From: a virus
Lineage: Duplodnaviria > Heunggongvirae > Uroviricota > Caudoviricetes
DNA length: 19,782 nucleotides
IMG/VR virus record: IMGVR_UViG_2711768053_000018
Location: 1 to 19,782 of that record
Strand: one strand, 5' to 3'
Shown here: in pieces, positions 815 through 968 of the stretch
How positions within the stretch are numbered: position 1 is the stretch's first letter
Layout of the letters: every line of letters starts with the position of its first letter
Position numbers and translations under genes: made by a program
Notes under the pieces: generated by a model
What the model was told of the DNA's origin: nothing
Databases searched by the model: none
Seen by the model: the letters and a program-made list of their open reading frames with translations, nothing else

Positions 815-889
815 TGGAGCGGGTAGCGGGAATCGAACCCGCATCATCAGCTTGGAAGGCTGAGGTAATAGCCATTATACGATACCCGC
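815..889 (-). tRNA. tRNA-Gly (anticodon UCC)
   Basis: Hand-folded 75-nt cloverleaf on the minus strand: 7-bp acceptor stem GCGGGTA/TACCCGC, anticodon stem TCAGC/GCTGA, loop CTTCCAA, T-loop GTTCGATTC, 3' CCA encoded. Resembles chromosomal glyT with a compensatory acceptor-stem change (from memory). Confidence 0.85.
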
Positions 890-892
890 ATA

Positions 893-968
893 TGGTGCCG
901 ACTACCGGAATCGAACTGGTGACCTACTGATTACAAGTCAGTTGCTCTACCTACTGAGCTAAGTCGGC
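893..968 (-). tRNA. tRNA-Thr (anticodon UGU)
   Basis: Hand-folded 76-nt cloverleaf on the minus strand: acceptor GCCGACT/AGTCGGC, D-stem GCTC/GAGC, anticodon stem ACTGA/TCAGT, loop CTTGTAA, T-loop TTCGATT, 3' CCA encoded. One A-C mismatch in the T-stem. Lies 3 nt upstream of tRNA-Gly. Confidence 0.8.

Follow-up and report, generated by a model that had tools for sequence, protein, structure and literature searches.

Lambdoid phages are known, as textbook knowledge, to carry transfer RNA (tRNA) genes in the interval from the late antiterminator gene Q to the lysis genes. In the closest described system, phage 21 (GenBank OL657228), the late strand reads Q21, pR', tR', tRNA-Asn, tRNA-Thr(UGU), and S21 holin, and the experimentally annotated series of pR', Q-binding element (QBE), pause, and terminator is followed at once by the tRNAs. 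Shiga toxin (Stx) phages likewise carry rare-codon tRNAs in the Q-to-lysis interval, close to stx; those of 933W-type phages are named ileZ-argN-argO. Near stx of phage Lys19259Vzw lie two tRNA-Arg genes and one tRNA-Met gene, and Stx-phage tRNAs are usually explained by codon compensation (PMC7946995). Here we analyze a tRNA-Thr(UGU)/tRNA-Gly(UCC) pair in a 19,782-nucleotide (nt) stretch of viral DNA (IMG/VR record IMGVR_UViG_2711768053_000018, positions 1 to 19,782), referred to in its entirety as the window.

The pair occupies the slot used by phage 21: it lies within a lambdoid prophage, flanked by a Q antiterminator gene and the lysis genes and sharing their strand. The locus therefore belongs to a known class of lambdoid late-operon tRNA arrays, and the exact cassette is already deposited, annotated, and in print. 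Unlike the window, phage 21 carries Asn-Thr without Gly, and its tRNAs follow immediately on tR', no separate promoter preceding them. The tRNA species of Stx phages also differ from Thr-Gly; in the collections that we scanned, the Thr-Gly core often has Met(CAU)-Arg(UCU) or Met(CAU)-Lys(UUU) fused to its upstream side. Our best explanation, to which we assign a probability of roughly 0.55, is that the pair is a mobile lambdoid tRNA cassette of the Q-to-lysis slot, captured once from the enterobacterial thrU-tyrU-glyT operon minus tyrU, and that it doubles the single-gene decoders of the codons ACA and GGA.

Two host-type tRNA genes downstream of a Q-like gene

A prior sequence-only reading of the window had described two cloverleaf tRNAs, 3 nt apart on the strand of a Q-like gene, that resemble chromosomal thrU and glyT, lack the intervening tyrU, and include a compensatory acceptor-stem change in tRNA-Gly. 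Each of these statements held, down to the exact coordinates. ARAGORN calls exactly two tRNA genes in the window, Gly(tcc) and Thr(tgt), and both score well above the Rfam RF00005 gathering score of 29 (73.8 bits, E = 8.7e-15, for tRNA-Thr; 65.6 bits, E = 1.6e-12, for tRNA-Gly). CCA ends are encoded in both. tRNA-Thr is identical to Escherichia coli K-12 thrU at 76/76 positions, and tRNA-Gly differs from glyT only by C6 to U and G67 to A. Because these two changes hit the two sides of one acceptor-stem pair, C6:G67 becoming U6:A67, the change is compensatory.

We read the identity elements of threonyl-tRNA synthetase (ThrRS) and glycyl-tRNA synthetase (GlyRS) from the sequence. tRNA-Thr has G1:C72, C2:G71, G35, and U36; tRNA-Gly keeps G1:C72, C2:G71, G3:C70, U73, C35, and C36 and is changed only at pair 6:67, which is not a known GlyRS identity element. 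The anticodon stem of tRNA-Thr (ACUGA/UCAGU) is an intact 5-bp helix, and that of tRNA-Gly is the same as in host glyT.

The pair is phage-borne downstream of a Q-like regulator, as the sequence-only reading had it; to that account we add only that all of these genes are on the minus strand and are ordered, in the direction of transcription, Q, Thr, Gly, holin. The product of the upstream gene matches Pfam DUF1133 (338 bits), Phage_antitermQ (30 bits; cutoff, 26), and PHROG 753, "anti-termination protein Q-like" (258 bits), and phage 683R6 has a homologue whose annotation reads antitermination protein Q. The tRNAs begin 364 nt downstream of this gene and lie 758 nt before the lysis genes, the first of which starts with an ATG at positions 56-54 on the minus strand and is a putative holin in the annotated record of the prophage (L001).

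In K-12, the host operon is organized as thrU-8 nt-tyrU-116 nt-glyT-6 nt-thrT-tufB, and essentially all E. coli genomes contain it as a distinct match in two pieces. This operon is the source of both cassette genes. The cassette lacks tyrU, thrT, and tufB, has a 3-nt TAT spacer in place of tyrU and its flanks, and differs from the operon in its promoter, its 53-nt structured leader, and its 3' flank. We scanned species-representative genomes and IMG/VR contigs with a pattern spanning the Thr-Gly junction; the totals below draw on the 138 tandems among the matches listed from all collections. The spacer is TAT in 132/138, and this shared spacer indicates a single origin of the cassette. One reading of TAT is that a clean 206-nt deletion removed tyrU and joined T (from CCA-TCAAG) to AT (from GGAT-GCGGG), but three bases are no proof. 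The listed tandems include approximately 71 copies with the host-type Gly allele C6:G67, approximately 62 with U6:A67, and 2 with the intermediate U6.G67. The flanks of the cassette copies diverge, whereas the copies themselves are on average 98% identical to the host genes. Of the stem changes in the Gly alleles, 20 preserve base pairing, with both partners altered in 13, and 6 disrupt it. High host identity despite diverged flanks and mostly compensatory stem changes point to functional constraint on the cassette.

The cassette is widespread. The junction pattern occurs at 11 places in the species-representative genome set, with carriers including E. coli ECMA0423 (3 copies), Shigella flexneri (3 copies), Escherichia ruysiae, Citrobacter braakii, and Enterobacter hormaechei, and in at least 120 IMG/VR viral contigs. 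The 154-nt pair matches 6,579 places in 5,421 complete E. coli genomes, approximately 1,158 more than one host operon per genome would give, with a maximum of 6 places per genome. In 175 complete genomes, at least 80% of window positions 1-3000 is present, with annotations for both tRNA-Thr and tRNA-Gly. In GenBank, phages that have the tandem include vB_EcoS-683R6, SerU-LTIIb (two copies, adjoining the LT-IIb toxin genes), phi467 (an Stx2f phage, with the tRNAs after stxAB), PhiR47_1, and JLK-2012. These deposited phages and prophages of the E. coli W lineage share Thr-TAT-Gly, and 683R6 also shares the DUF1367-YbcO-Q genes and the leader; the deposited cassettes vary only as to the Gly allele (C6:G67 or U6:A67), the presence of additional tRNAs upstream, and the neighboring genes (stxAB, methylase, and other Q and holin types). 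The pair has been named as a landmark of Stx2f phage phi467 (PMC5189129). In the open-access literature, we found almost nothing on the pair beside an antiterminator or on ileZ/argN/argO, and PMC5189129 is the pair's sole mention. The remark in the sequence-only reading that this pair is less familiar than other lambdoid tRNAs needs tempering, as the pair is common and routinely annotated. In this respect the finding is an ordinary one, with the exact pair annotated in hundreds of genomes.

Two further matches in the representative set stand apart. Photobacterium sagamiensis (L016:575-950) has the array Ser(UGA)-Thr(UGU)-8 nt-Gly(UCC)-Asn(GUU), which fits the junction pattern with an 8-nt spacer. 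A 423-nt contig of coverage 0.67 in the assembly of the myxobacterium Corallococcus exercitus (L019; NZ_RAVW01000911.1) carries the cassette and its leader and is almost certainly contamination.

Every one of the 138 tandems lies in the Q-to-lysis interval and none elsewhere in a prophage. Upstream neighbors are a DUF1133-type Q gene (33 cases), two other Q types, a methylase gene, and StxB; downstream neighbors are an S-type holin, the holin type of the window, and TciA. Thr-Gly is the constant core of variable arrays: it stands alone, as in the window, at 59 loci and is preceded by Met(CAU)-Lys(UUU) at 37 and by Met(CAU)-Arg(UCU) at 18, the remaining loci having Asn-first and other arrays. 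The tRNAs added elsewhere decode the A-ending codons AGA, AAA, and probably AUA. We also observed thrU-type bodies with other anticodons: UCU (Arg; G35C, A31G, and D-arm changes) in SerU-LTIIb (L004:1122-1197) and UUU (Lys; G35U and A26G) in two IMG/VR contigs. From their sequences, these look like anticodon switching within the cassette after duplication.

Transcription signals and structured elements around the pair

Signals between the Q-like gene and tRNA-Thr fall into two sets (Table 1); for the first, we aligned 23 distinct intergenic regions located downstream of DUF1133-type Q genes. Immediately past the Q stop codon, in the position of the annotated pR' of phage 21, is a candidate PR'-like promoter with a -35 element TTGCAA (1325-1320), a 17-nt spacer, and a TG-extended -10 element TGcTTCAAT (1305-1297). 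Its TTG and AACTGCTTCAATT blocks are kept in 23/23 distinct variants. The leader that follows is nearly invariant and contains a predicted hairpin (1289-1282 / 1270-1263) and a tR'-like terminator, with a stem at 1236-1217 and a T-rich run reaching 1208. All 23 variants retain this stem; in one of them (L052), the loop and the stem register differ. The leader/terminator stretch folds at -35.9 kcal/mol (z = -3.3 versus shuffled sequences). This module probably represents the PR'/qut/tR' unit of the little-studied DUF1133-type Q family, and it parallels the experimental series annotated in phage 21. Weak Rfam matches to STnc370 and to the Trp and Leu leaders at 1207-1302 were below threshold, and we treated them as terminator-hairpin noise.

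Table 1. Features of the tRNA cassette and its surroundings, in order of transcription
Feature	Position	Strand	Basis or detail
Q-like late antiterminator gene (DUF1133 family)	1333-1869	minus	Pfam, PHROG
PR'-like late promoter (putative)	1297-1325	minus	Sequence and conservation only
Late leader hairpin and tR'-like intrinsic terminator	1208-1289	minus	Fold and conservation
Predicted sigma-70-type promoter of the cassette, TTGCGA-16 nt-TATCAT	1032-1059	minus	Promoter scan, 9/12 matches
5' leader hairpin, GGUUC-Y-GA-GGG...CCY-GA-R-GAACC	972-1024	minus	Ends 3 nt before tRNA-Thr
tRNA-Thr(UGU)	893-968	minus	ARAGORN, Rfam RF00005
Spacer TAT, Thr CCA to Gly G1	890-892	minus	3 nt
tRNA-Gly(UCC), glyT with U6:A67 replacing C6:G67	815-889	minus	ARAGORN, Rfam RF00005
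Branched 3' element	682-787	minus	Closing stem GCACUG/CAGUGC (787-780 / 697-690), three hairpins, U7 (688-682)
Second conserved long hairpin, imperfect (CAGAAUGGUGCAUUAUCGG ... UCGGUGAUGCAUCAUUCUG)	611-674	minus	
Strong intrinsic terminator, 8-bp stem (451-432) and T8	424-451	minus	Terminator scan
Intrinsic terminator GGGCC...GGCCC (98-83) and T6	77-98	minus	Terminator scan; just upstream of holin ribosome-binding site

Beyond the tR'-like site the sequence is variable, and a second set of signals accompanies the cassette itself. Its predicted sigma-70-type promoter is conserved in register: TTGnnn lies exactly 16 nt upstream of TAT(C/T)AT in 20/20 distinct cassette variants, and the 12 distinct spacers between these hexamers average only 40% mutual identity. 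A leader hairpin begins 6 to 8 nt past the -10 hexamer and ends 3 to 7 nt before G1 of tRNA-Thr across variants; we found it at 53 of the listed loci in 28 distinct forms. From the base inward, it consists of GGUUC/GAACC, a Y:R pair (C-G in 8, U-A in 4, and U.G in 4), a tandem G.A/A.G (retained in 16/18 forms), and a G:C-rich helix, with a variable interior. Within the aligned helix, 90.4% of cells are paired, versus 24 to 69% when the partners are slid, and four pairs have changed on both sides; covariation is modest, the observed score being reached by 16/500 shuffles. Promoter and leader occur together in 49/57 testable Thr-first cassettes. Met-first arrays have their own promoter, TTGCAG-17-TATTAT, abutting the first tRNA, and the Asn-first arrays of the phage 21/JLK type have none and follow directly after tR'.

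On the other side of the pair, a branched element of approximately 105 nt lies directly 3' of tRNA-Gly. CACTG...CAGTG (40 to 130 nt apart) followed by a T-run occurs at 65/132 of the listed loci (for example, L003, L011, L021, and L022) in 27 distinct forms, all of which fold alike. RNAalifold kept the closing stem and two inner helices across 13 diverse forms, and one column pair (68:88) is G-C in 7 sequences and A-U in 5. In GenBank phages, this flank adjoins the cassette only. The element is probably the terminator or trailer RNA of the cassette. We considered whether it is a degenerate tRNA and rejected this: ARAGORN makes no call there, and neither RF00005 nor any other Rfam family matches at E <= 1. 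Structured non-tRNA RNAs of tRNA operons are known from 3' external transcribed spacers (3'ETS-leuZ type) and from the stable RNAs of the T4 tRNA cluster. Like them, the 3' element comes immediately after the last tRNA and has a U-run at its end; it has no sequence relationship to either and may be a mere terminator.

Taken with the promoter and the structured leader before tRNA-Thr, the branched, U-tailed element after tRNA-Gly suggests that the cassette is laid out as a self-contained unit. The conserved promoter, leader hairpin, and branched 3' element, all three predicted by sequence comparison, may be undescribed in the literature that we searched. Further downstream, the imperfect hairpin at 611-674 is kept in several otherwise diverged downstream families, before different holin types. 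Two intrinsic terminators lie between the tRNAs and the holin gene, so late-gene expression should still need Q. A sub-threshold Rfam match to STnc100 (422-618) was again treated as terminator-hairpin noise.

Codon supply and competing explanations

glyT is the only known UCC tRNA gene of E. coli. ThrU is the only UGU tRNA of strain MG1655 and is of low abundance (PMC12445682). We compared codon use in the late and early genes of the prophage with that in 41 genes of the same host chromosome. GGA makes up 0.08 of Gly codons in the host, 0.19 in late genes (odds ratio [OR] 2.8, p = 2e-9), and 0.29 in early genes (OR 4.9, p = 5e-19). For ACA, the shares of Thr codons are 0.12, 0.18 (OR 1.6, p = 0.011), and 0.32 (OR 3.4, p = 3e-13), respectively. 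The comparison, which the sequence-only reading had proposed as a check, thus finds both codons over-used by the prophage, and because of this over-use an extra supply of ACA and GGA decoders is the most likely role of the cassette.

In such a role, transcription would start at the cassette's own sigma-70 promoter, approximately 57 nt upstream of tRNA-Thr, so that a lysogen could produce the tRNAs independently of Q. Once the prophage is induced, RNA polymerase modified by Q and starting from the PR'-like promoter would pass tR' (1236-1208) and the later terminators; judging from the layout and the analogy with phage 21, this read-through would add late-phase transcription of the tRNAs en route to the lysis and structural genes. 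RNase P would cut at G1 of each tRNA, and 3' exonucleases would strip the UAU spacer, exposing the encoded CCA. Processing of tRNAs by RNase P and 3' exonucleases is established in E. coli. ThrRS and GlyRS would be expected to charge the products because these are identical or nearly identical to the host tRNAs and pair 6:67 is not a known GlyRS identity element. U6:A67 is a built-in tag that separates the phage tRNA-Gly from host glyT in tRNA-seq, so whether prophage tRNAs are expressed in lysogens is directly answerable from tRNA-seq data sets.

Several points weigh against this explanation. AUA and AGA are equally or more enriched in the prophage (OR up to 8.9), yet the prophage has no tRNA for either, and the codon argument is therefore not specific. 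The late-gene excess of ACA is modest (OR 1.6). A host-identical gene adds dosage only, and recombination with host thrU and glyT could keep the copies host-like without selection for any benefit to the phage. Finally, we infer the expression of the cassette, the use and timing of its promoters, and its benefit from sequence.

One alternative overlaps heavily with codon supply to the phage and differs only in the beneficiary: as a lysogenic-conversion moron, the cassette would be expressed from its own promoter mainly for the host, raising ThrU and GlyT for AT-rich acquired genes, with little lytic role. The predicted Q-independent promoter conserved in register in 20/20 variants and the self-contained, promoter-to-terminator-like layout fit this idea, as do the association with toxin-converting phages (LT-IIb, Stx2f) and the presence of up to 5 extra copies in single genomes. 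The cassette nonetheless lies invariably inside the late operon, and the promoterless phage 21/JLK-type arrays directly after tR' argue for use in the lytic phase. We consider a mainly host-directed function unlikely.

A second alternative is that the cassette supplies spare parts for host tRNAs destroyed by defense nucleases, chiefly P2 Old. Old, the agent of P2-lambda interference, kills by amputating the anticodon arm of host tRNA-ThrU(UGU) (PMC12445682). It cuts at paired CNG motifs (nt 28-30 and 40-42) with A37 (PMC12445682, 2025). With tRNA-Thr(UGU) genes from phages, lambdoid phage 21 among them, viability recovers by a factor of at least 1000; resistance needs both a change in CNG and a shortened stem, and extra host tRNA-ThrU gives little to no protection (PMC12445682). 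This work makes lambdoid tRNA-Thr genes candidates for anti-defense functions.

Parts of the cassette family match this description. The tRNA-Thr of phage 21 occupies the same Q-tR'-tRNA-holin slot. Among the listed tandems, 5 distinct Thr alleles (11 copies) have G42U/C and U43C, which break pairs 28:42 and 27:43 and the 3' CNG, the resistance-linked signature of PMC12445682; positions 42/43 and the D-loop are the only recurrent hot spots of Thr alleles. In JLK-2012, tRNA-Thr (L007:3003-3078) is chimeric, with positions 1-26 matching the Thr of phage 21 (L141:39671-39746) and the rest of thrU type; it carries G42U/U43C, a shortened anticodon stem, and a broken 3' CNG. Many arrays also add Lys(UUU), an anticodon type indicated by the context of the AriB screen (PMC12445682).

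The window itself points the other way. The Thr of phage 21 is a distant, Old-resistant relative with an altered, shortened anticodon stem, whereas the window Thr is the Old-sensitive host sequence: it has the UGU anticodon, but its CNG motifs (C28-U29-G30 / C40-A41-G42), A37, and full-length stem are unaltered. Because this is the sensitive allele, evasion of Old is unlikely at this locus. In tRNA-Gly the anticodon stem is unchanged and pair 6:67 is distant from any reported cleavage site, and we did not recognize a homologue of Gam, the known trigger of Old, among 8 early-left open reading frames (ORFs). Gly is not named among Old-cleaved tRNAs in the main text of PMC12445682. The CNG/CNG motif with A37 in glyT was dropped as a clue to an Old target since host tyrU carries it too. 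Replacement of nuclease-damaged tRNAs is therefore an improbable account of the window, while Old resistance is probably relevant to the cassette family beyond the window allele. With both the sensitive host-type allele and resistance-like 42/43 alleles, the family is a natural test series.

A more speculative explanation, on which we would place little weight, treats the cassette as an autonomous mobile RNA module with functional non-tRNA RNAs (the leader hairpin and, above all, the cloverleaf-shaped 3' element) and its family as an arena of an arms race between Old and lambdoid phages. The 3' element could then act as an sRNA of the 3'ETS type or as a tRNA-like decoy or sensor for tRNA-directed nucleases; the site of P2 Old cleavage in tRNA-ThrU, a CUG/CAG pseudo-palindrome, is mirrored by the invariant CACUG/CAGUG closing stem of the element. 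Such an arms race would also be consistent with the 42/43 alleles and with the Thr bodies whose anticodons have shifted to Arg(UCU) and Lys(UUU).

It is very unlikely that the pair is a neutral passenger, a scrap of the host chromosome that was acquired through illegitimate recombination and spread by phage mosaicism. Near-identity to the host genes and a spacer readable as a clean 206-nt tyrU deletion are what a chance capture would leave. Such a scrap does not account for more than 130 copies that remain intact across many phage backgrounds, with Gly stem changes that are mostly compensatory, for a promoter kept in register across diverged spacers and structured flanks that are conserved, or for arrays repeatedly lengthened with further tRNAs. 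That the locus is simply the host thrU-tyrU-glyT-thrT-tufB operon, whose sole support is identity to thrU and glyT, is refuted: tyrU, thrT, and tufB are missing, a Q-like gene and a holin gene flank the pair, integrase, excisionase, recET, and ralR lie within the same 19.8 kb, the sequence after tRNA-Gly is non-coding and leads to the holin, and the genuine operon is found separately in the same genomes.

The prophage and its other features

The window is 99.8% identical to a prophage of E. coli SC418 and 97.8% identical to W-lineage prophages. In the annotated record, it is part of a full Rac-type lambdoid prophage integrated at or next to ttcA. The prophage encodes intR, xisR, ralR, recET, kilR, and ydaSTUV-type early genes. 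It also has the DUF1367-YbcO-DUF1133 block and the tRNA pair, along with genes for two holins, an endolysin, the terminase, and structural proteins. tRNA-dependent lysogeny (PMC10865867) is inapplicable here, as the integration site is ttcA rather than a tRNA gene. Small ORFs at 1125-1340 (minus strand), 561-716 (minus strand), and 662-826 (plus strand) have no Pfam match, and we regarded them as non-genes.

Three further observations concern the prophage rather than the tRNAs. A hokD-type type I toxin gene lies at approximately 3219-3380 on the minus strand (L001: 23223-23378), upstream of the DUF1367-YbcO-Q block. Opposite ralR, at 18048-18226 on the minus strand, is a full-length RalA antitoxin sRNA (Rfam RF02694, 218 bits), which indicates that the Rac-type type I toxin-antitoxin system is intact in the prophage. 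Lastly, NZ_CP026085.1 and NZ_CM135829.1 (4.83 Mb, labeled E. coli DH5alpha) contain the full Rac-type prophage at 97.8% identity, as in the W lineage; since a K-12 derivative should be without the Rac-type prophage found here, these DH5alpha labels look wrong.

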